Assembly: GCA_964016885.1 (NCBI GenBank) | Contig: OZ024742.1 | Location: 80,724,001 to 80,788,000, forward strand | Direction of reading: 5' to 3' | Source of the DNA: Eledone cirrhosa | Taxonomy: Eukaryota | Length of the DNA stretch: 64,000 bases | Shown: positions 3,347-62,064 of the stretch, one piece after another | How positions within the stretch are numbered: the first letter of the stretch is position 1 | How the letters are laid out: every line of letters begins with the position of its first letter | Notes under the pieces: generated by a model | The model's input: the letters and a program-made list of their open reading frames with translations, nothing else | What the model was told of the DNA's origin: nothing | Databases searched by the model: none | Translations under genes and position numbers: made by a program

Positions 3347-3412
3347 TATTTCATTATACATATTTCAGGGATACCATATTAAAAATATGGCATGCCTTCT
3401 TCAGATAAAATA
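3347..3412 (-). ncRNA. Type I hammerhead ribozyme motif (PLE pLTR)
   Basis: Inverted copy of 5739-5804 with intact CTGAAGA and GAAA core. Confidence 0.7.
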
Positions 3413-5043: not shown

Positions 5044-5400
5044 CTACATTTTAAATTTATATTTATATTTAAACGTTGAGTTCAATCTATGTCTGCAGCA
5101 ACTGAATAAATTGCTCCTTAAATTAAGGGAATGTTTAGATTTTAATATAAAGAATATCTCCTCCACGCAGAGGTCACATGTCTCAGATGAGGAATTAAAA
5201 GGAATCCCTCTTGAGACTATATTCCAAAACATCGAATATCCAACGTTATCATGTTTAAGTTGCCAGAGTAAGCCTGATAGTGAAGTTGAAGATTTTTTGT
5301 TTGGATCTGTGAAAGAATTCTTATGATTATTATAGCGAAGTTTAAATTCTGTCGAGGTGGAACCAACATAGTTAAAAGAATTTAAGTTAGTTTTAACATT
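5044..5400 (-). pseudogene. PLE GIY-YIG endonuclease C-terminal fragment
   Basis: Translates to NYVGSTSTEFKLRYNNHKNSF...WNIVSRG...CDLCVEEIFFI...LNLRSNLFSCCRH. Confidence 0.85.
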
Positions 5401-19635: not shown

Positions 19636-20237
19636 AAACTCACTTGGAGAAAGATATGTCTTAAATGATCCCCGCCTGAAACGAATTCAAAATGACTAAG
19701 AACTGTGACCTGGCAGTGGTCAAGTCAGAAAGAATGTGATTGGTGACTTACGGCGATCGGGCTGGTTGCTAGAAAGTGCAGCCAAATATTGCCCAAATTG
19801 CATCTCAACCTTAAGGGAGATTATCAAATATAAAGATTTACATATACACAAACTAGACAAAGTCACAGATATATATCTCTCTGGCAACCGTTCACGATGT
19901 GGCTCAATGATGAATTAATAAATTAAATAATAGAGAAATATACTATAAAGTATGTCCATAGAATCATTTGATAATATATATACACCATTTCATCTCCCAA
20001 TTAGCATAATCAACCACACAAAAAAACAATTAAACCAGGCTATACGATTAAAAGGCACCTATGAAGAAATAGTAGATAAATAAACGACAGCAATCTATTC
20101 GCGATCAACCGCTATAGAATATTTACCCAACATTTTAATAGCACGTGGATATCGATTAAATATACCGTCAACCATACACAATTAGTTATAAAATGAAAGT
20201 TAGAAGAAAAAATGCATATAAACATACCAGGAATACA

Positions 20238-20287
20238 TTTCTACCCTTAGGGTTTCGTCGCTTTTGAGCTTCGAACTCATCAGGAAA
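20238..20287 (-). ncRNA. Type I hammerhead ribozyme motif
   Basis: Minus strand reads tttc-CTGATGA-gttcg..cgac-GAAA-CCC(TAA)GGG-TA-gaaa. Confidence 0.8.
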
Positions 20288-20427
20288 CAAACTCACTTGG
20301 ACAAAGATGTTTCTTAAATCATGCCGGCAGAAACGAATTCAAAATGGCTAATAACTGTGACATGGCAGTGGTCAAGTCAGAAACAATGTGATTGGTGGCT
20401 TACGGAGAGAGGGCTGGTTGCTAGAAA

Positions 20428-20461
<34 letters not shown>

Positions 20462-20463
20462 TA

Positions 20464-22128
20464 TACATTATGAAGAGAGAAGAAACATTTAGATATAATT
20501 AGTAATAAAATGTATCATACCTAAACTGCTCCTAAATTCCTCGACTACGTAGTTTCGTGGCATAAACAAAAACAATATATCATAAAGATATAGAGTCCTT
20601 GCGAGGTCTGCCGACTTATCAAGAGGATACCTCATTTTACTAGTCTCAAGAACGCGTCTACACGACGTGAGAAAGAATCCCAAAAGGCGGAGGGGGAGAT
20701 AGTCACGCGATATAACGGTCGAGAAACAGAGCTAAGCCTCTTATAACCCCGAATAAAATACCACGGAGGCGGAGGGGGTATTCATATCGAGGCCGTAGAA
20801 GAGGTGGTGAAGAATGCGAGAAGTATGAGTAATGGAAGCTTTCCAGCTGTCCCCACACTTCAAAGATTGCTCGACCAGAGGGAGTTATTAACAATATATT
20901 TAGAAACACACAGATACATGCGGACACACACATATATACATGAATGCATCCGCACCCAACTGTGAGTTAAGGGTGCCAACTTCACCGATGTTGCTCAATG
21001 AATGACTGGGACAGACCAATTCAGTTGAACTAGACTGAACCAGTATCAGAGTTAAAAATACATTATGAAGAGAGAAGAAACATTTAGATATAATTAGTAA
21101 TAAAATGTATCATACCTAAACTGCTCCTAAATTCCTCGACTACGTAGTTTCGTGGCATAAACAAAAACAATATATCATAAAGATATAGAGTCCTTGCGAG
21201 GTCTGCCGACTTATCAAGAGGATACCTCATTTTACTAGTCTCAAGAACGCGTCTACACGACGTGAGAAAGAATCCCAAAAGGCGGAGGGGGAGATAGTCA
21301 CGCGATATAACGGTCGAGAAACAGAGCTAAGCCTCTTATAACCCCGAAGAAAATACCACGGAGGCGGAGGGGGTATTCATATCGAGGCCGTAGAAGAGGT
21401 GGTGAAGAAGGCGAGAAGTATGAGTAATGGAAGCTTTCCAGCTGTCCCCAGCTCATATATACATGAATGCGGATGCATTCATGTATATATGTGTGTGTCC
21501 GCATGTATCTGTGTGTTTCTAAATATATTGTTAATAACTCCCTCTGGTCGAGCAATCTTTGAAGTGTGGGGACAGCTGGAAAGCTTCCATTACTCATACT
21601 TCTCGCCTTCTTCACCACCTCTTCTACGGCCTCGATATGAATACCCCCTCCGCCTCCGTGGTATTTTCTTCGGGGTTATAAGAGGCTTAGCTCTGTTTCT
21701 CGACCGTTATATCGCGTGACTATCTCCCCCTCCGCCTTTTGGGATTCTTTCTCACGTCGTGTAGACGCGTTCTTGAGACTAGTAAAATGAGGTATCCTCT
21801 TGATAAGTCGGCAGACCTCGCAAGGACTCTATATCTTTATGATATATTGTTTTTGTTTATGCCACGAAACTACGTAGTCGAGGAATTTAGGAGCAGTTTA
21901 GGTATGATACATTTTATTACTAATTATATCTAAATGTTTCTTCTCTCTTCATAATGTATTTTTAACTCTGATACTGGTTCAGTCTAGTTCAACTGAATTG
22001 GTCTGTCCCAGTCATTCATTGAGCAACATCGGTGAAGTTGGCACCCTTAACTCACAGTTGGGTGCGGATGCATTCATGTATATATGTGTGTGTCCGCATG
22101 TATCTGTGTGTTTCTAAATATATTGTTA
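20464..22128. mobile_element. Young tandem plus inverted array of a 595-bp non-coding HHR-bearing unit in (TA)n
   Basis: Left arm 20464-21450 has period 595, and right arm 21468-22128 is in the opposite orientation. Copies are nearly identical, with HHRs at 20538-20627(-), 21133-21222(-) and 21795-21884(+). Confidence 0.9.
21795..21884 (+). ncRNA. Type I hammerhead ribozyme, U3-A8 core variant
   Basis: TCCTC-TTGATAA-gt(c)ggca..tgccac-GAAA-CTACGTAG-TC-GAGGA. Stem III is palindromic and the predicted cleavage is after 21879. Identical copies lie at 20538-20627 and 21133-21222 on the minus strand. Confidence 0.8.
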
Positions 22129-22428
22129 TATATATATATATATATATGTATATGTGTGCGTGCGTGTGCTTATAGAGATGAACATACGCACACTGACACA
22201 CTGACACGCACACATAAACGAACATACACATATACATATATATATATATATTATAATGAAATGACAGGAGGCTGGATTTGTGTAAATCCTTGAAAGGTTT
22301 ATTATACTATGATCATTTCAATGACCGGTTTCCATATGAATCCGGTGATATCATCAGGTATTCGAAATACAATGCGTGAATGTAATAGATAAAATCCATA
22401 TCTATTACATTCACGTATTATATTTCGA

Positions 22429-24523: not shown

Positions 24524-24815
<292 letters not shown>

Positions 24816-25375: not shown

Positions 25376-25835
25376 CAGAAAATATTGTTTGGGTAAAAAC
25401 AGGAGTAAGTAGGAGAAAGCGGTCAGCAATCGTAAATTTTAGTTACGATGGAGAATTTTATAAAAATAAGAAAATGAGATGCTGAGGTTACATATACAGT
25501 TTAATCATTATAATTATTTCCACGGGTCTCCATGCAATCGAGATGCCCTTCATGCATTTGCTCTTGTAATAAAAACGGTATCCTCAGATGAATAACCGAT
25601 ATGTTTGATAAGTCTCTGGCTGGTAAAAACACACGTCCTATTGCTCGTGTGCCCAGCAGACATAGACTGTGTTTTTACCTGCCAGCGACATATCAAACAT
25701 ATCCGTTATTCATCTGAGGATACCGGTCTCATAACAACAGCAAATGTATGAAGTGCATCTCGATTGCATGGAGAGTTGTGGAAATAATTATAATGATTAA
25801 ACGATATATGTAACCTCAGCATCTTATTTTATTAT
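25372..25835. mobile_element. Older inverted pLTR pair with HHRs, between (TA)n arrays
   Basis: Arms ~25465-25640 and ~25662-25835. HHR TCAT-CTGAGGA-..-GAAA-TAATTA-TA-ATGA lies at 25710-25796(+) and 25505-25591(-). Confidence 0.75.
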
Positions 25836-29324: not shown

Positions 29325-32300
29325 ATAATGGAAACATTTGAACAGGAACAAAACAGAGAGGCAGTACAACGAATGTTTATTAATTTCACGCTCTGGAGAG
29401 TGGGGTGGTGGTGGGGAAAGACGTTTCGGGCATAAGCCCTTCCTCAGGAGAGAAGTGTGTGGGAACAGAGTTCAAAGGGTGTGTAGGGGAGTGGTGGAGA
29501 GACATATAGCGAAAGGAAACGGTGCGAATGAAATTAAATATAAAAATAAAAATAAAAATAAAGCATGATCAAAATACAAGGAATGAAATAAAATTAAATA
29601 TAAAAGCATGATCAAAATAAACTGAAAATAAAAGGGGGTAAAACAGGTGGTGGAAGGGTGCAGGGTGTGTAGGGGTGGTGGTGGGTGGAGTGGGGAGAGG
29701 GAGACGGGTGTCCAAGTGGGGAGGGCTGAAGGTGGTGTGTGTGTGTATGTGTAAGGTGTGTGTGTGTGTGTATGTGTAAGGTGTGTGTGTGTGTGTATGT
29801 GTAAGGTGTGTGTGTGTGTGTGTGTGTATGTGAAAGTAAGGGTTGGGGGAAGAACGGGGTTGCATGTTCAGGAAGAGGTGTGTGTGGCTGGTTGGGGGTT
29901 GTAGGTCGGAGTGTATGTGCGTGTGTGGATAGAGGGGTGGGGGAGAGGAATCAGGAGGCTGAGGGTGAAAATATGTGGTGGAAAGCACGTGTGTGGGGGG
30001 TTTAAGCGTTTTGTTAGTGTAGGTGGCGTGTGGAGAAAACATGTTTGGGGGTGTATGTGTGGGTGAGTTATATAGGTTATTCCGTAAGAGGATGGTTGAA
30101 AAGTTGGTAAATTCCTAGGATGTTTAGGGGATTCTGTGGTGGTCAAGTTCTGCATACGAGTATTCCATGAAGAGATGGTCGGAAGAGCAGAGATGTGGGG
30201 TGCGCGCGCAACAGGAAGTGGTCAAGCAGTGGGAGTGCTGTGTGTCTGTTTGTGCTGGGAGGTGGTCAGAGGGCATAGCAGAAGTCGGTGGAATGGTAAA
30301 GGGGCGAGGATGGGTAGGTATGAAAGTTGGAGTGAGGAGGGTGTGTGTGTGTGTATTAGTAGAGATGTTAGTGGGATGAGTGAGTGTGGAGCGAGGGTGT
30401 GGGTGGAGCGGGGAGAGAAGGGTGTGTGTAGTTCTATGGAGGGAGTGTGGTGTACTGGTGTGTGTGTAGTTTGATGAAGGGGTGTTAGTGGGTTTTAGTA
30501 TACGGGAGGTGGGGAAGGGTTGAATGCAGGTGTGAGTGGGGGTTAGTGGTGGTAGGGTGTCTAGAGTTGGTGGTGTACGAGGGTGTGTGGGTACGTGTGC
30601 GTGGGGTTGAGGGTGTTAGTGATGTTAGTTGCGTGTGGGGTGGGTGGTGTAAGTGGATGCGTGGGTTCGTGTGCTTGGCGTCAGGGGGTGTTAGTGAGGT
30701 TAGTTGCGGGGTGGTGGGATGGAGGTGTGGGGGTGAGGGTTAGTGGTGGTAGTAGGGTGTGTGTTTAGTGTGAGCGTGTGTATATATGTGCCGGTGGGTG
30801 TGTGCGTGTTATAAGGAGGGGGGAGCAGGAGAAGAAGGGAGGGATGTTAGTATGTTAGTTGGGGAAGGGTGGTCGGATGAGGGGTGGAGTGGAGGTGTTA
30901 GTATTGTTAGTTGTTGGGTTGGCGCTGAAAAGAAGGGGTGTGTTAGTGGTGTTATTGGGGGATAAGTGTGGGGGGAGTGGGGCGGTCGAAGGCTAAAGGA
31001 ATAAGGGTGGGGAGTTCAGGCCGGGGGGAGTGTGGGTCTGTAAGATGAAGATAGTTCTTTGTTCGTTTCTAAGGCGATTGGCGGGTGTTCCGTGGCATTG
31101 GAGTAGGCCACAGACTGTGAGATGGCTTGCGGAATGTCCAGAGCCACCAAAGTGGCGGGCGATGGGGGAACTACCTACGAGACGATTATCCCGGAGGTGC
31201 TCAGTGAATCGGTCCGCCAGGCGACGTCCCGTCTGTCCGACATAAGTCGCGCTGCACGGTTGGAGGAGGTGCAGCGGAAGGCATGCCGGACAGAGAGAGA
31301 GTGGCCGTTGGGATCCTGGAAGGTGGTGGTGTTGGTGATGTCGGGACAGGTGTTGCAGCGGGGCCTAGAACAGGGAAAGGAACTGGGGGGGACATAGCGT
31401 TGGTTGGGGGGGATGAGCGTGGGTTGGGGGGTAGGAAGTTGTGGACGAGGAGGGTGCGGAGATTGCGTGCGCGTTTCAAGGAGGGGAGTGGTTGGGTTTG
31501 GAATATGTGGGAGGTGGAGGGGTCGGACTGGAGGCGTCGGAAGTGTCGGCGGATGGTGCGGTGGAGGTGTAAGTGAAGGGGGTGTTAGGTGATGTGGAAG
31601 GGGAGACGGTTGGTGGGTGTGCGGTTGCGTGGGGTGAGGGTGGTGGAGCGGGGGACAGCACGGGCGCGGGTGAGAGCGGTGTGGACGAGAGGGGGGGGTA
31701 ACCTCTGCGGATGAAATGGCTGACTAGGGAAAGGGCCTGGGACACGAAGTCAGCATCTCGGCTACAGAGGCGGCGGATCCTGAGAAGTTGGGAGTAGGAA
31801 ATGGAGTGTTTAGTGTGGGTGGGGTGGGAAGAGGTGAAGTCGAGGTAAGAGTGGGAGTCGGTGGGTTTGAAGAAGGCGGAGGTGACGAGGGAGTGTTGGG
31901 AGGGGTCGAAGGCGACGGAGATGTCTAAGAAGTGGACGTGGGTGGTGGAGATAGAGGTGGTGAAGTGGAGGGAGGGTGGAAGGAGCAGATGAAGGAGAGA
32001 AAGGAGTCGAGCTGTTCTCGGGTGAGGGTCGTGGTTCCGATATAGTCGTCAATGTAACGACCGTACAGTTCGGGCGTGGGGCCGGTGTACTGGACAAAGA
32101 TTTGGGCCTCAACATGGCCAACAAAAAGGTTGGCATAGTTCGGGCCCATTCTTGTACCCATGGCTACCCCCGTGACCTGTTGGTAAAACTCACCTGAGAA
32201 GGAGAAACAATTGAGGGTGAGGACCAGCTCGGCGAGGCGAAGGAGGGTGGGGCGGAGGGAATGGGGGAGGGGCGAAGGTCGAGGTAGTGTTTGAGGGCGC

Positions 32301-34073
32301 GTAGGCCGTCGGCGTGGGGGATGGCGGTATAGAGGGACTTGATGTGTAGGGTGAAGAGGAAGAGCTGTGGGCCGGGTGGGTAGGTGAAGGAGTCGAAAAG
32401 GCGCAGGGCGTGGTTGGTGTCGGAGATGTGGGAGGGGAGGGTGGTGACAAGGGGGCCGAGGATGGAGTCGAGAAAGGCGGAGATGAGTTCGGTGGGGCAG
32501 TTGCAAGCGGAGACGATGGGGCGGCCGGGGTTGTCGGGTTTGTGGAGTTTGGGGAGGAAGTAGATGGTGGGTGTGCGGGGGGTGCGGACGATGAGGTGGG
32601 AAGCGGTGTGGGAGAGGAGGGAGGAGGCGATAAAGTATTTGATGGTGGAGGAGACTTGTTGTTGGTAAAGGGGGGTGGGATCGGAGGGTAGAGGGCGGTA
32701 GAATAGGTGGTACCAGAGCTGCCTGAGGGCATCGGCCGTGTAGAGGTCCGCGCGCACACCACTACGGCGCCTCCCTTGTCCGCCGGTTTGATGACGATGT
32801 CATCTCGGCTACGGAGGGAGCGGAGAGCGAGGAGTTCGCCCCGTGGGATAATGTACCGTTTGGAACGGTGGCGGAAGTCGAAACGATTTACTGCGGTACG
32901 GCTGGCATCGACGAAGGCGTCCAGGGTGCTAAATTGCCCTGGGGCCGGCGTCTAAGAAGATGGCCGTTGGCCCAGGGCCAGAAACGGGTATGGGGCGTCC
33001 GGAGCCGGTGGCGTTCGGCCGAAATCTGCCTGTAGCTTGGTGCGTCGCACGAATCGCTCGACTTCCGTTCGGGTGCGGAACTCGTCGCTGTGCGGAGTGT
33101 GGGGTATGAAGCGAAGGCCTCTACTAAGGAGTGAGCGCTCAGGTGCGGAGAGGGGTCAGGTCAGGGGGTATGGTGACAACAAGTGGTGGGGTTTGGGGGT
33201 TTGGGGAGGGAAGGGAGGGTGTGGTGAGGGGTGAGGGGGGTGGAGATTGTGTAGGGGTGTGGGTCGAGAAGAGGTGGAGAGTGGTGGACGTATGGGGATG
33301 GGCTGGTGGTGGTGGATGGGGGTGGTTGGGAGGAGTGAGTATAGGTTGCGGGCTTTGGTGGAGCTGAGGAAGGAGAAGAGGTTGTGGTTGAGGTTTTGGA
33401 TGAAGGAGAGGATGGCTTGGGCGAGGAGGGAGTGGCAGGTGGAGTTAAGGCGGAGGAGGGTGGGGATCAGTTGGTGGTCAAGTTGGCGGAGGGTGGAACA
33501 GGAGGCGCGGCTGGAGTTGCGCATCAGGAGGCGTGAGGTTCGGGTGAGGATAAGTTGCGTGGAGGGGGAAGCGGCGGGGGAAGGGTGGAAGTGTAGACGG
33601 AAGCTGAGGGGGATAAGGTGGAGGTGGAGGCAGTGGCTGAGGAAATGAATGTGGTGGAGTGCCGGGTTTTGGCGAAGAGAATGTAGGAGAGTTGGAGGGC
33701 AGAGGGGAGATAGCAGGGTGGGAGGAGGGGGGTGAGGAAAAGTTTGAGGCGATTATGTAGTTGGTGGAGAAAGGATCTCAGGCTGGGCATGGTGGGCGTT
33801 GGGTGCTAGCAGGGGAGGGATGAGAAGGCAGGGGTGTGAAGCGGGGTGGAATGAACGAAGGAGTGAGTGCGAAGAATAGGCAGAGATGAGGAAGGGAAAA
33901 GGAAACAGAAAAACGTAGTGAGGGGGGAGTATACACAGGAACATTAAAGACAAAAAATCATAAAGAAAGATAAAAACACAGGCAATCGTGAACAAAAAAT
34001 CATAGAAATGAAATTGTAAGAACACAGGCAAAGAATTATATACGGAAATAAACAAGTACAGTAACAAAATCAA
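29325..34073 (-). mobile_element. Near full-length Penelope-like retroelement (frameshifted), strongly C-rich sense strand
   Basis: ORF remnants span 33790 to 30993, followed by a long CA/C-rich 3' region. An HHR-like CTGAGGA-agggcttatgccc-GAAAcGTC lies at 29414-29452, and the 3' end abuts (TA)n. Confidence 0.9.
30993..33790 (-). pseudogene. PLE RT plus GIY-YIG endonuclease polyprotein, several frameshifts
   Basis: Motifs in order: LLSRGLRFIP, DIVIKPADKGGAVVV, IYFLPKLHKPDNPGRPIVS, GVAMGTRMGPNYANLFV, RYIDD, KPTDSHSYLDFTSSHP, RGYP, TYVGQTGRRLADRFTEH, IARHF, PPGLN. Confidence 0.92.
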
Positions 34074-34074
34074 A

Positions 34075-35275
34075 CGCTGCCTGTCATCCCCAAATGGACA
34101 AGAGCTGATGAAGTGCGGGCCTGTCTTAAGTCGTCCATGTTGTGGCTCCAGGTGAATAGTTTGTACCTAAGCACAAATATGCGTGCTCATTTGCATGGTG
34201 ACAACATGTCTGCAGCACAGAACATTTTAGTACTTGGTGAGGGCAAGATCCCTGCGGATGACAAGGGCAGCAAAGCAATCGACACCCTGTGCAACATTGT
34301 GAGCAGCCCTTCTGAACTTTGGGAAGCAGTTTTTCCTAATGTCTCATCTAACTTTAAAAACCTCGATTGGCTCAGCCAAAGAGCCATCCTTGCTCCGAAA
34401 AATACCATGGTTAATTTTATTAACGAGCAGTTGATTGACAGATTCCCGGTAAAGAGCACATCTTCAAATCAGACCCCGACGATATCGTTAATTATCCGGT
34501 TGAGTTATTAAATCTCCTTGAGCCCCCAGGGCTCCCACCTCACATTATTAAGCTTAGGGTTGGCTGTCCCATTATGCTAATAAGGAACTTGCGTCCACAG
34601 CAGTGCAACGGTACTCGCATGGTCGTCAAGTCACTGATACACACTTGATCGAGGCCACCATTGTAACGGTATGCGGAAGAAGGGAGAATGTTTTCATTCC
34701 AAGGATGAACCTTTTCCCCTCGGCGTCAGATATCCCGTTCGATTTCCGACGATCCCAATTCCCGGTGAGACCTTGTTTTGTCATGTCCATTAACAAGTCA
34801 CAAGGGCAAACATTGTCGGTGGCGGGCATCTATTTGGAGGAGCCATGCTTCTCCCATGGCCAACTTTATGTTGCCTGTTCCCGCGCAGGGAGCAGGAATG
34901 GACATTGTGCTTACTCTCATCAAGGGATGACACGCAATATCGTCTACAAAGAGGTGCTATAGATGTTGGTGCAGGTGTTGGAGCTATGCCGACTGGAACA
35001 CTATTTCCTGGTAGGGTATCCCATGGCGGACAGATCTGACACCCAGCGGCATCAGAGCCACCATCTTGTAACTTTGGTCTACTAAATTCGCTATTGGAGG
35101 ATTATTAACCCATCATTGATTGACCAAAATGGTAATTGGTTCGTAACTTTTAATAACCGGTTCAACTGCTTTATGCACTTAATTGATAAGCTTATTCGCT
35201 TTCAAACCACGTTTACCTGTATGTAACTTTTCATAGCAAATGATCAAACCGGAGCAACGCCGGGCTAAACTGCTA

Positions 35276-36284: not shown

Positions 36285-37570
36285 ATAGTATATACATGTA
36301 AAATTGGCACTAAGGACTCAACTTATTCATATATAGGAGCTACTTCTAACCAATTTAAAGTAAGATTTAATACCCACAAACAGTTTTAAAAATGCCGCAT
36401 TAGCTAATACAATATCCTTAGCTGAAATAATTAATAATTATAGAAAAAATAATATCGATTATAACTTGACCCAGAGTGTGCTCAAAAGGGCCACCCCTCA
36501 TCAAAATAATAGATATGAAGGTAGATTATATTCCCAGGAACTTTTTGAAATAATGAAATCTAAGGATATCCTATTAAATAAGCGACAATAATTAATTATA
36601 TCATGCAATCATAGAATTAGAAAAACTTTCAAATATTATAAACCTAATTAATATACACTTATATTTTACAAATTATTATAATTAATCTTTTTAAATTAGT
36701 TAACCTATAATTAATATTCTACTACTAAGAACTGCATAATTTTATTTCCCTTTTACAGCTATCTTTTCCTAAAATTTATACCAATAAGTATACATATAAA
36801 CTATTTTAATTTCCTGTTAGGAATCTAAATTCCTTTTAATCCATATATGTTTGTTATTTCTCACTAATACATGTCCCCCCCCCCCCCCCCCCCCGATTTT
36901 TTTTCCTTCGTTTTTAACAACATTCTTTAATAACATCTAACTCTTATTTATCATATCTATATGAATTAATATAAATTTATCACTATAAATATACCTATCA
37001 ATTAAATTAACTTAATTTCTTTTTATAGATCTATATTCCTTATGTTTTAAATAAGATTGATATTTTTCTCTAAAACATTTATAGCAAAAAAAATTGTTAT
37101 CCTTAGATTTTAACATTAGCATTATTCTTTAATAGCATCAAATGTTCGTGTACTTTCACCGGCTTGACCTATTTTCATCCCCAAAGTAATCTTTTCATTC
37201 AAAATACTTTTTCCATTAAAAACTGAAGTCTGCATTCCTCTACCCCTAAATTAAATTTCTACTACTACTCTTCTATCAACATGACCACTTACTACTTTTC
37301 TATTGGTCAATTCAAAACCTGTTCCAAACAGACCTATTATATTTAATCTTTGTTGGTTTTTTCAATAAACAAATATCATTGTTTCTGAAGACAGCATAAA
37401 TATGTGTAGGTATGTATATTCCCTCTGATAGTTTGTAAAACATTTACATAGATATATATGATATACATACCAACACACACATATATATCCTAGAAACGAT
37501 CATAAAATGAAGAATATTTTAATATAAGGAACTGTTTCTTTGTTTTTATTCATTATTTTTATTAATTTAT
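36285..37570 (+). mobile_element. 5'-truncated PLE: GIY-YIG remnant, 3' UTR and HHR
   Basis: IVYTCKI..SYIGATSNQFKVRFNTHK..LLNKRQLIISCNH at 36285-36651. CTGAAGA (37385) ..GAAAcgatcATAaaatg (37493) precedes (TA)n. Confidence 0.75.
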
Positions 37571-37940: not shown

Positions 37941-38860
37941 TGTTATAGTTTGGGAGGGTCATGTTGCCAATAAGAAACACACGCACCAGAAAGTTTTACT
38001 GCAATTTATTATAAATTAAATTTATAAATTTAAGCCTTTATAAATTTCCGGCTGGTTGGTTCCACAACCGGACGGTTGGTCATATATTCTCAAAGTTCTT
38101 TCGTTACACATTCTGTGACCACATCAGTGACTGGGGATTCTTTTCTTTGTTTTGTGCATCTCCTTTGTTCTGTCCTACGACATCTTGTTTTTGTGTGTGT
38201 TGTGTGATTAGTTGCGCATGTGTTACATCCGGGTGTATGTGTGTGTTTTTATTTGTTTATTTATTTGTTTAGTTACATGTTACTGGTGGTTGTTTGTTCT
38301 ATGTGTGTGTGTGTTTTCATGTTGTCCTTAATTGTAAGTTGTGATGTTGCTATTCCATTCATGTCTTCTATTTAATTTTGGTTGGAGTTCATTTGTGTTT
38401 ATTGCCTCTGTGATTTGTCTAAACATTCCGTCTTTTCTGTGTGTAGATTCTATTTTTATTTCTATGTTCCCTAATTTGCCCTTATGATCTATTTTAGAAT
38501 GTTGGTGGATTATTGATGATTCGTTTTTATTTTGAAGCTCTCGCCAGTGTGTTCATTTAACCGTTCTCCTTTACTATGAGGTGTCTCACCTATGTTCACT
38601 ATATTCTTATCTCTACATTGCCATTCAGTACATCTTATGCTATATACTACATTTCTAGTTTTACAGTTAATATGGGGGCTTAGTTTACAGATTATGCATT
38701 TCTTATCTATACAGGGATGTCATTGAAATGTGTATGTATTGCTAATAACTGTTTTTAAGGAGGTACCTGGTCTTTCTACTATCTTAATATCAAGTTTAAC
38801 TTTATCTAGGGCCCTTCTAAATTTGTAAGCTAATTCACCTTTAGGTGTTAAAGAATGTTG
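37940..38860 (-). mobile_element. 5'-truncated PLE: GIY-YIG remnant plus decayed HHR
   Basis: Minus strand reads IKIVERPGTSLK..CIICK..NCKTRNVVYSIRC..NIGET..RLNEH. A gtca-CTGATGT..GAAA..TA-tgac motif lies at 38079-38131. Confidence 0.7.
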
Positions 38861-38879
38861 CTAAACAAATTCAGAAACG

Positions 38880-38915
<36 letters not shown>

Positions 38916-38934
38916 CGTTTCTGAATTTGTATTT

Positions 38935-39497
<563 letters not shown>

Positions 39498-39514: not shown

Positions 39515-41415
39515 ATAACCAGATACAATTCACACCTCCATTCTTTCAAAAAACACAGTCTAGCCAACTGCACTTCACTATCTAGCTACATACACTATCT
39601 AAAAACTAGAAACAGATCTTATACACTTCAATGGGAAGTGATAGGTAAGGCAGCATCGTACAGACCACCTAATAAATTATGTAACCTCTGTATACTAGAG
39701 ACCCATACTATAATCTTCTCGGACCTTTACCTCCTTAATAAAATATCGTAGGTGTTTGCGTCGTGCCACATCCGCTTCCGGCACTCCTTCCAAAACTTTA
39801 AACCCAATATATAACAATGTCAGATTTGAACCCATCACCGCTTCTAACACCACACCTCAAGGGCACGCCTTACACCACAACACCACACTCTCTGATCCAC
39901 TCTATCTAGACAGAAATCATTCCATCTATCTATAACTTTATACCCTTATGAGATATCCCCATAAACACCTACTTTTCATATAATTACTTTCAATTACTTA
40001 TAATTATGTAGTGATATAATACCGTCTATATAAACTGTAAATACTAGATACGGCAGTGAATTATATATGCAATTGTAATTAAATGTATGGAGTAATAACA
40101 TTGGATATATATAGGATTAATTTATTAACATAAGGGATCTGTCTAACTTATATGTAGGGTGCTGCAATGAATTATATATGAATTATATATACATTTATAT
40201 ATGCAAGTATAACTTGATGGATAGATTAATGACATTGTAAATGAGGGATGTATTTGTCTGCCCCAGAGATATTTTGTTTTTGTCATGCAAACAGCCATAC
40301 GCTGCTCCATAACTTACCAGGGGTTATGTAGACAAAATTCTAATAGGTCATCTGATGTGTTTTGAGAGTAGAGTGTATTTACAGTGAACTTTGATATAAA
40401 GATATGGCACTGTGTATGGGAAATTCAATTGTAACACTATATAATAAGGAGTAATCAACTTACTATAGATACCTTTAGTACATTATGATAGAGTAGACTG
40501 TATTTATAATTGAGATCTAGATGTAAATATATAACGGTTTATATAAGGGACGCAATTGAGGAACCATATAATGTATGTTAGACCAATGAATTTAGTTATG
40601 AGAATCAGCTAGTTACCTCCCCTTACGCATTAACTCCCCTTAATTACACACATACTTCAGGGTAATAAACCACTGTTAATTCTCGCAACAGAAAGACCCT
40701 ATTCTATAACTATGGATTAAATAACACTGAGCCTCAATACACTACAATAATTTAATGCATCAAACATTCACTACGGCATCATCGTTACTTATGTGATGGA
40801 TGTAAAAACTATGCCTTAATTTTTCTGGTTGTGAAAATGGTGGTGGATACGAAAACTATTACTTTTTTTGCTTCTTCTTTTTTCTCTTTTTCTTTTTCTG
40901 CACACATACTTTTTTTATCTATACTAAAAATAACCTACCACTACAACCACCATAATACTCTTGCTTACCCGCTTAAAGTGCTTGCATTACATGTAACACC
41001 TGCCACACAATAATGGTATAACAATGAGACACACTCGCATGCTCCATGTGTAACTAACACATACACTACCTACTATCAAACTAACACATACACTACCTAC
41101 TATCAAACTTTCCTCCTGCATTATCTGTGTTATCTGCCGAATGTATTTTAATTTTAATTTTGATTTTGATTTTAATTTTGATTTTGATTTTGATCTTGAA
41201 TTTGAATTGCTGTACAAAAAGAGTATAGTGTAATATATGTCACTCCACTGTACATCAATATATATATATGTATCTGTATGTCTCTTGCGTCGGAAAGGAG
41301 GTCAATTATATGTGCAAACATTGAAAAATGCTCCGAAAAGCCAAGCCTAGGTGTGGATGAAACAATTGTAAGTGAATAAATGCTTTGAACATAGCTTTGA
41401 TTCTTGTGAATTCTA
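39515..41415 (+). mobile_element. 5'-truncated PLE: GIY-YIG C-terminus, long 3' UTR and vestigial HHR
   Basis: [40 protein letters not shown] tcact..GAAA-CAATTG-TA-agtga motif lies at 41240-41375. The right boundary is inferred. Confidence 0.7.
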
Positions 41416-42231: not shown

Positions 42232-43806
<1,575 letters not shown>

Positions 43807-44759: not shown

Positions 44760-45479
44760 TAGCGTTCGCCGAAAACGCAATACGAACTGATTATAGCAGT
44801 GGTTTAAGAACCTAGAGAGGTGTTATTACTTTTTACTATCCAATTCTATAATTGTATATGTTTTTTATTTATTTAGTATCTTTAAATCTCAATTTATTAA
44901 CCTATCATTGGCCGAAAATGCAATACCAACTAAATATAGCAGCTATTTTAGACTCTAGAGATTTTTTATTACCATCCAATTTGATATTTGTATATATTTT
45001 TTTATTTGTTTATTATCCTCTAATCTCATTTTATTAACCTATTCTGTCACGTCCCCTCTCTATTTTCGCCAGAATCCCTTTTCGCCTGCTTCCTATCTAG
45101 CCTATTTTCATACAAAATCCTTAGATTTTGCTGTATAGAATTCACTTTCAACGCTTGACCGGCTCCACCCACTCCCTCATTGTTCTACACGCAAGTTCAG
45201 CCACCCACTGCCATGAAAGATTTAATTGTGTTTACAAGAAATGTTGACCAATCCTCTTGACAACTACAATCTTCCCATATAAGGAATTACCCCTGTGAAA
45301 AGTTCGGGTATTTATTTACCACGCTAAAAATTCTAATTTAGTCCTGAAATAGCCGTCGAAACGGCTCGACATCTGCCGTCGGGGTCTAACATTTTCCTAT
45401 TATCCACTCTACTACCATAAGTATTGAGTACTCTGGTGCGTTATGGTCCATTTCATTCCTTACCACACTTCCTTCGTTA
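44760..45479 (+). mobile_element. PLE 3' UTR and pLTR fragment (relative of the 42336 family) with HHR at 45289-45385
   Basis: Ends ccacacttccttcgtta|(TA)n like 42336. The HHR reads ACCCC-T(g)TGAAAA..GAAA-CGGC..GCCG-TC-GGGGT. Confidence 0.7.
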
Positions 45480-51240: not shown

Positions 51241-51252
51241 AATATATATATA

Positions 51253-51430
51253 TAACGAAGGAAGTGCGGTAAGGAACCAGGCAGACCATAACGCTCCAGA
51301 GTACTCGATACTTTGGGTAATAGAGTGGGTAATAGGAAAATATTGAGGACCCCGACGGCAGAGATCAAGCCGTTTCGACAGAAATAGCCGTCAAAACAGC
51401 TTGAGCTCTGACGTCGGGGTCCTGAACATT
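51253..51430. mobile_element. Tiny inverted insertion of the 42336-type PLE terminus in (TA)n
   Basis: Long arm 51253-51380 and short inverted arm 51381-51430. Confidence 0.75.
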
Positions 51431-61945: not shown

Positions 61946-62064
61946 TACTTACTGCACCTAGGTTTCACAAGCGGTCACCCATCTAATTACTAACTAGCCT
62001 CGACGTTGCTTAACTTCGGTGATTGGACGAGAACCGGTGTTTTCAGCGTGATATGGCCGTAATT
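61946..62064 (-). pseudogene. 5S rRNA-derived sequence (pseudogene or SINE head)
   Basis: Minus strand reads ttacggccatatcacgctgaaaacaccggttctcgtccaatcaccgaagttaagcaacgtcg..ttagtaattagatgggtgaccgcttgtgaaacctaggtgcagtaag. It has substitutions and no T-run terminator. Confidence 0.85.

Follow-up and report, generated by a model that had tools for sequence, protein, structure and literature searches.

A protein-free hammerhead retrozyme in Eledone cirrhosa, with genomic signs of an edited RNA circle likely re-read by a borrowed Penelope enzyme

The window analyzed here, a 64,000-nt stretch of Eledone cirrhosa DNA (contig OZ024742.1), contains an insertion of 2.77 units of 595 bp between the two halves of a (TA)n target (20445..20462 and 22129..22147). 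The insertion consists of two 5´-truncated arms joined by their 5´ ends: a left arm on the minus strand (20463..21450; 988 bp or 1.66 units) and a right arm on the plus strand (21468..22128; 661 bp or 1.11 units), separated at the head-to-head junction by a 17-nt spacer (21451..21467). The outer 3´ end of the left arm, at a site denoted T1, and that of the right arm, at a site denoted T2, both run into (TA)n. The arms are complementary at 100% over 562 nt and at 99% over 497 nt, and the tandem spacing is 595. The unit has a GC content of 42% and a longest ATG frame of 76 codons, and a Pfam search of two 125-codon stop-to-stop frames in it gave no match. These data bear out the initial annotation, which had described about 2.8 near-identical 595-bp units in tandem and inverted orientation without a real ORF. 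Tandem Repeats Finder reported nothing on the array, as its period limit of 500 is below 595.

The same window holds a single-armed copy of an older subfamily at 90% identity (38929..39394, plus strand), which ends at T2 in (TA)n. Its hammerhead core, in the motif starting at 39063, is unchanged, as had been noted earlier for a diverged copy. An inverted copy of its own left flank is found across the (TA)n at 38860-38930, as if the second target end had been primed on flanking DNA. A truncated copy of an autonomous Penelope element, PLE-A (42331..43721, minus strand), is separate from the retrozyme insertion and represents a candidate kind of helper. Short PLE-A-type tail insertions (24645-24725, 45379-45477 and 51249-51338), endonuclease fragments of other Hydra-like families (5074-5400, 36288-36648 and 39521-39805), a 5S rRNA match (61946-62064, minus strand; 86 bits) and a GC-rich, strongly G-skewed repetitive stretch (29500-34500) were also seen in the window.

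Each unit carries the motif TCCTC-TTGATAA-stem II-GAAA-CTACGTAG-TC-GAGGA, with starts at 21795 (+), 21222 (-), 20627 (-) and 39063 (+). The three copies in the array (21795..21884 on the plus strand, 21133..21222 and 20538..20627 on the minus strand) correspond to a type I hammerhead with a U3-A8 core, for which the cut in the first copy is predicted after 21879 (C17). The core and all three stems are present in every unit, in agreement with the initial annotation; stem II has 2 bp, a 1-nt bulge and 4 bp below a long structured loop, and stem III is palindromic. The U3-A8 core itself is already published, having been described for the minimal hammerheads of Schistosoma Cercyon elements (PMC4209133). 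No hammerhead was matched here in an Rfam scan at either the gathering or the E-value threshold. Constraining the 90-nt motif to the hammerhead fold gave -22.5 kcal/mol compared to -23.6 kcal/mol for the free fold, a cost of ~1 kcal/mol, and the minimum-energy fold of the predicted 595-nt circle does not include the hammerhead. The palindromic stem III duplex has a predicted energy of -12.9 kcal/mol, which would allow a dimer fold. With regard to activity, the minimal hammerheads of Penelope elements were reported to cleave poorly (PMC4209133), and one of nine Xenopus retrozyme dimers was reported as cleaved in vitro (bioRxiv 10.64898/2026.07.22.740005).

The predicted fold of the whole unit is far more stable than that of shuffled sequences (z = -7.15). 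Relative to this fold, the older subfamilies have 2 and 5 compensatory pairs, but 7 and 18 pairs are broken in them. None of the 44 hammerhead positions differs between subfamily majorities, compared to 54 and 118 of the 551 positions elsewhere (P 0.013 and 4e-5). This invariance across subfamilies up to ~20% diverged indicates that the motif was kept while the lineage moved. Other hammerhead-like sequences were also observed in the window. Just left of the array, at ~20235-20290 (core 20283, minus strand), an unrelated repeat carries a type I motif with the canonical C3-G8 core, and inverted pairs of hammerhead-like cores at 25587 (-) and 25714 (+) and at 3404 (-) and 5747 (+) are probably two-armed insertions of other Penelope families.

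By its sequence features the element is a non-LTR retrozyme, for which RNA cleavage and a circle are predicted: there is a type I hammerhead in each unit, the tandem repeats are short, no protein is encoded and there is no LTR/PBS organization. The type III hammerhead in LTRs and the 4-bp target duplication that define plant LTR retrozymes are replaced here by a type I motif and head-to-tail units in (TA)n. The 595-bp unit also lacks the ORF with reverse transcriptase (RT) and GIY-YIG endonuclease that defines an autonomous Penelope-like element.

A search of the 3.0-Gb assembly for the unit's hammerhead pattern returned 7,286 matches compared to 0 for the reversed pattern, and a shorter hammerhead motif returned 8,149 compared to 7 for the control. 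The assembly also contains 39 matches to molluscan haemocyanin domains and 121 clustered protocadherin-type domains, as fits a coleoid cephalopod, a group with an expansion of protocadherins. Two young subfamilies have 3,516 and 935 exact matches, and older subfamilies were found at ~90% and at 76-80% identity (the oldest, with 25 loci). The earlier proposal of recent activity is supported. Our insertion sample comprises ~140 of several thousand insertions, partly picked for being arrays; within it, the median number of units per insertion is 1.8 and the maximum 7.6, with at least two units in 58 of 142. Linkage to an ORF was checked with Penelope proteins at the best-hit loci, 53 contig-1 loci taken by position and the 25 old loci, and no copy continuous with a Penelope ORF was detected in any of these three sets. 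The absence of an ORF, the tandem units and the lack of an ORF-continuous copy in the loci examined support the earlier view that the element is non-autonomous, and the case raised against it, a unit that always forms the pLTR of an autonomous Penelope ORF, was not encountered in the sampled loci.

Penelope ORF fragments do occur within 2 kb of some copies, and in L004 only ~130 nt away, as expected in a genome full of Penelope elements. These fragments, along with an insertion signature and a hammerhead build like those of PLE-A, are what one would expect if an autonomous Penelope element had left the copies behind as its pLTRs or as truncated 3´ ends. We consider this extremely improbable, given that single arms have up to about 5 head-to-tail units with no ORF between them, that arm ends run into (TA)n, that the two neighbors read in sequence (L004 and L226) are both separate insertions, that the unit has no homology to any pLTR of the four Hydra families sampled, and that the ORF-less form persists over ~20% divergence. 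The L004 unit and its adjacent ORF fragment were also considered as a chimera with a homologous helper, a candidate that was rejected since the fragment belongs to a separate neighboring insertion.

The ends of the arms follow a strict rule. Counting phase from window position 21500, which places the hammerhead cut site at phase 380, T1 lies at phase ~460, 80 nt 3´ of the cut site, and T2 at phase 29-36, ~245-250 nt 3´ of it. The two sites are 165 nt apart, and both end in TA-like sequence. Among the 88 two-armed insertions (of 142), 77 have one T1 and one T2 end, one has two T1 ends, none has two T2 ends and 10 have a non-standard end; the 54 single-armed insertions end at T1 (25), T2 (28) or elsewhere (1). 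Identical T1 and T2 ends were found in the oldest subfamily. Many arms are longer than one unit (62 of 109 T1 arms, up to 2.9 kb, and 65 of 112 T2 arms, up to 2.6 kb), and of the 44 insertions that could be tested, 43 have two arms of a single subfamily. At their inner 5´ ends the arms stop at scattered positions, and the head-to-head junctions mostly show an overlap of 0-5 nt. The initial annotation had read the different phases at which the two arms start and end as a sign of a copied circle. For the inner 5´ ends this holds, but the outer ends are two fixed sites, and likewise in the autonomous PLE-A. The use of two fixed sites, nearly always one of each per two-armed insertion, is new to judge from our literature search.

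PLE-A has a full unit of 3,531 bp with a 784-codon frame, with full units in L061-L062 and L289-L308, and the frame is present in >40 copies among the 100 matches listed. Its protein, for which database relatives are 38-54% identical, has RWR, DKT, CxCX5C, CNLC and CKH motifs, and its target is (TA)n. The features given for the Hydra clade are RWK, DKT, a CxCX5C linker, CxxC and CxH around endonuclease E and N, and a (TA)n target (PMC8557442); judged from its sequence, PLE-A falls in this clade by motifs and target. The PLE-A hammerhead has a U3-A8 core, an identical stem II build (2 bp, bulge, 4 bp) and a long loop, and its pattern has 5,074 genome matches with position 7 left free. PLE-A also has two fixed ends, 80 nt apart and one per arm, and forms arrays of up to 4.55 x 3,531 bp (~16 kb), in which private variants are common to the passes (on the sense strand, C>T 13 and G>A 0). 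The presence of the same pairing in an autonomous element indicates that the insertion signature is that of Penelope machinery. Mobilization by a Penelope element, as proposed earlier, is supported by the tandem and inverted insertions, the alternative fixed 3´ ends and the (TA)n microsatellite target, all as in PLE-A.

BLASTN of the unit against the loci of PLE-A and three other Hydra families, a sample of those in the genome, revealed no homology, and an nhmmer search with natural copies as the profile likewise gave no hit in them (best 5.8 bits). One of these families, B, has a canonical C3-G8 core. We favor a Hydra-clade Penelope enzyme as the helper, while its assignment to the PLE-A clan in particular is doubtful. 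A second intact Hydra-like family, with a 714-codon frame, was found in L119-L124; its 3´ region is rich in TA/TG microsatellite and holds two related hammerhead-like motifs.

Where an insertion covers a position repeatedly, variants were classed as shared (present in all passes), single-pass or partly shared (present in some passes). Our cleaned count was restricted to the two young subfamilies (91 of 138 insertions, 85 of them with repeated passes), with polarity taken from the older subfamily and after exclusion of 83 columns of ambiguous alignment and of the 10 nt at arm ends; one duplicate locus was dropped, and two old loci failed the identity filter. On the ribozyme strand, A>G accounted for 73 of 124 shared variants (T>C 9, C>T 12, G>A 12) compared to 10 of 171 single-pass variants (T>C 24, C>T 28), and for one of the 13 that were partly shared. 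The skew was seen in each young subfamily alone (51/86 and 22/38), among variants common to both arms (31/54), when one event was counted per site per subfamily (29/60), and in arms of less than two units (26/39 shared compared to 3/67 single-pass). At 40 fresh loci, the corresponding fractions were 25/58 and 6/107. The cleaned count supersedes this tally and the first one (A>G 29/58 shared compared to 16/219 single-pass; Fisher 8e-10 for A>G against C>T), both of which included polarity errors in an intermediate subfamily. For PLE-A, as a control, A>G made up three of 45 shared variants, no A>G skew. One insertion, L238, carries identical private changes in 7-8 passes over both arms. This all-or-none pattern of A>G across passes is likewise new to judge from our literature search.

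The A>G sites fall in predicted helices (P 0.0035), and a 5´ G is avoided (3/32 compared to 24/84) while a 3´ G is favored (11/32 compared to 14/84). ADAR has a neighbor preference against a 5´ G and for a 3´ G, and coleoid cephalopods have high levels of RNA editing. Of the 15 recurrent A>G sites, eight were seen in at least two subfamilies. We regard the A>G changes as likely to reflect A-to-I editing of the template RNA. An alternative that we think unlikely keeps the circle but derives the A>G excess from selection tolerating A-U to G-U changes in helices, from transcription-linked DNA mutation at source loci, or from RNA-to-RNA copying. The location of the sites in helices would fit, as would the strand skew in PLE-A shared variants noted above. 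Among variants found in a single insertion only, the strand bias is also weaker (A>G 17 compared to T>C 13, P 0.04), though A>G, at 17 of 55, remains much more frequent there than among single-pass variants (P 1e-6). However, C>T, which preserves pairing to the same degree and is the most frequent change among single-pass variants, was shared only 12 times compared to 73 for A>G, the neighbor bias is ADAR-like, and PLE-A in the same genome is without the A>G skew. Editing of the template RNA remains our preferred explanation.

A strand-specific change must arise on RNA, and a linear multimer would be changed unit by unit; the all-or-none pattern thus points to one monomer that was re-read. Passes through the cut site were free of indels in 327 of 327 cases, and 5´ ends did not pile up near it (8 of 221, with 5.6 expected), which favors a ligated circle. 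The same two observations led us to reject a linear monomer on which the RT would jump at the cut site. We conclude that the template of one insertion was likely a single re-read monomer, that is, a circle, so that the circular template suggested by the initial annotation gains support from evidence that it had not used. The divergence within an insertion approximately equals that from the nearest other insertion, and homogeneity alone does not discriminate. Among the sequencing runs listed for the unit, none was of RNA, which has no bearing on its expression. Two of the runs each contain one 620/621-nt contig, at a depth of ~8, that covers one unit; we do not use these contigs as evidence, since they cannot separate tandem DNA from a circle and are explained by trace DNA.

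The same element and helper could also work without a circle if a homogeneous source array gave a long linear transcript that stayed uncleaved and served as the template. Passes through the cut site that are free of indels are equally expected from such a transcript, and unprocessed RNA was the main in vitro template for a Penelope protein, PAc (PMC11167929). In addition, five pairs of insertions have two or more variants in common, suggesting that part of the shared set was inherited through sub-lineages or a source array rather than made afresh. Inheritance, however, shifts the re-reading to an earlier round and does not remove it, and a homogeneous edited source array would itself require an earlier step from monomer to multimer. 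Editing unit by unit also predicts single or partly shared A>G changes, yet there were 10 single-pass (with T>C at 24) and one partly shared compared to 73 shared, and the all-or-none pattern extends to arms of less than two units. We therefore judge the linear transcript quite unlikely. Insertion of a monomer followed by tandem growth at the DNA level through unequal crossing-over, as proposed for vertebrate retrozymes (bioRxiv 10.64898/2026.07.22.740005), could account for the 13 partly shared variants. This seems very improbable, since columns with at least three passes have 94 single variants compared to the 13 partly shared, the longest arrays are among the least diverged, shared A>G is already present in arms of less than two units, and the fixed T1 and T2 ends and inverted arms are made at insertion.

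Taken together, the data are best explained by a protein-free retrozyme whose edited circle is likely re-read by a borrowed Hydra-clade Penelope enzyme. In the model that we propose, transcription through an array would give a multimer, which the hammerheads would cut to monomers, and a host ligase, as proposed in PMC7229834, would close each monomer into a 595-nt circle. Judged from the genomic copies, it is likely that transcripts of tandem copies are cut after C17 and that the products are ligated. The fold predicted for the circle has the 3´ half of the hammerhead base-paired to the T1 region, a state in which the hammerhead would be inactive, and ADAR would edit the helices. A Hydra-clade endonuclease-RT dimer would then cut (TA)n, with short TA-like pairing serving to prime one target end at T1 and the opposite end at T2. 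Strand displacement is a property of RTs without RNase H, and both RTs would circle with displacement, stop at random and have their cDNA ends joined head to head; failure of one side would leave a single-armed insertion. We find it reasonably likely that a dimer cuts both (TA)n strands and primes at T1 and T2, and that displacing RTs yield cDNAs joined distally into a head-to-head array. A broader generalization can be offered tentatively: one dimer acting on a single circle at two fixed sites, priming both ends of the (TA)n cut and running two rolling circles at once, might account in general for Penelope tandem-plus-inverted insertions, the 16-kb PLE-A arrays among them, and germ-line A-to-I edits returned to DNA might supply most heritable variation in the retrozyme lineage (59% of insertion-level changes).

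Movement of retrozymes as circles copied by Penelope enzymes has been put forward as a hypothesis (PMC7229834; bioRxiv 10.64898/2026.07.22.740005), and how Penelope tandem and inverted insertions form was named as an open task (PMC8557442). The family described here offers a genomic read-out of both. The likely edits mark one template molecule and point to its re-reading, and the strict rule of one site per arm constrains the geometry of the enzyme. The proposal is open to direct testing with a Hydra-clade protein that is young and intact and with a defined RNA of 595 nt, and the pattern suggests a route from RNA editing to inherited sequence in a cephalopod.

Several known systems share parts of this pattern. 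In L1 twin priming, a head-to-head inversion likewise results from priming by both target strands, but the second site is variable and the arms have no overlap, whereas the retrozyme uses two fixed sites, and each of its two arms extends over several units. In vitro, the PAc protein of the Anolis Poseidon element was shown to cleave both target strands, to extend each of them and to begin reverse transcription at two internal sites, and insertion did not depend on hammerhead cleavage (PMC11167929). The two internal RT start sites, the cutting and extension of both target strands, the AT-rich target and the predicted dimer are shared with the system proposed here. The PAc sites, however, are described as adjacent, not strand-specific and not homologous to the target, with priming that needed no homology (PMC11167929), while the retrozyme sites are 165 nt apart, almost always used one per arm, and have TA-like ends. 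Hydra-clade elements are described as having tandem and inverted insertions with a tail of 30-40 bp at one end (PMC8557442). The retrozyme resembles them, and PLE-A as their representative here, in the (TA)n target, the tandem and inverted insertions and the two alternative ends with a hammerhead just upstream, and it has the U3-A8 core and bulged stem II in common with PLE-A. It differs from PLE-A in having no ORF, in ends that are 165 nt rather than 80 nt apart, in the A>G marks, which PLE-A lacks, and in sequence, without homology. The Schistosoma Cercyon hammerheads (PMC4209133) show the same core covariation and palindromic helix III but are minimal and mostly single, whereas the motif here has a full helix III and a long helix II domain and sits inside a tandem non-coding unit.

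With animal non-LTR retrozymes (PMC7229834; bioRxiv 10.64898/2026.07.22.740005), the element has in common the non-coding tandem repeats, the type I hammerhead, a GC content below 45%, thousands of copies and the proposed circles with Penelope enzymes. The initial annotation had called it larger than typical animal retrozymes; at 595 nt, it is above the 170-400 nt given in PMC7229834 but inside the 51-972 bp given in the bioRxiv report. It is further distinguished by the U3-A8 core, the long stem-loop II, and insertion into (TA)n with head-to-head arms that end at two fixed sites. In the Discussion of PMC7229834, RT on a circle is a hypothesis and editing is named only as a possible cause of RNA heterogeneity, whereas here genomic sequence provides the evidence that a single edited template was copied. 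Among the listings of our literature search, outside subscription journals and supplements, there was no report of an all-or-none edit pattern or of obligate T1/T2 pairing, and no paper on edited genomic copies. The element is of a known kind. This variant of it, and foremost the signs in the genome that an edited RNA was copied by two rolling circles from fixed sites, is new as far as this search reaches.
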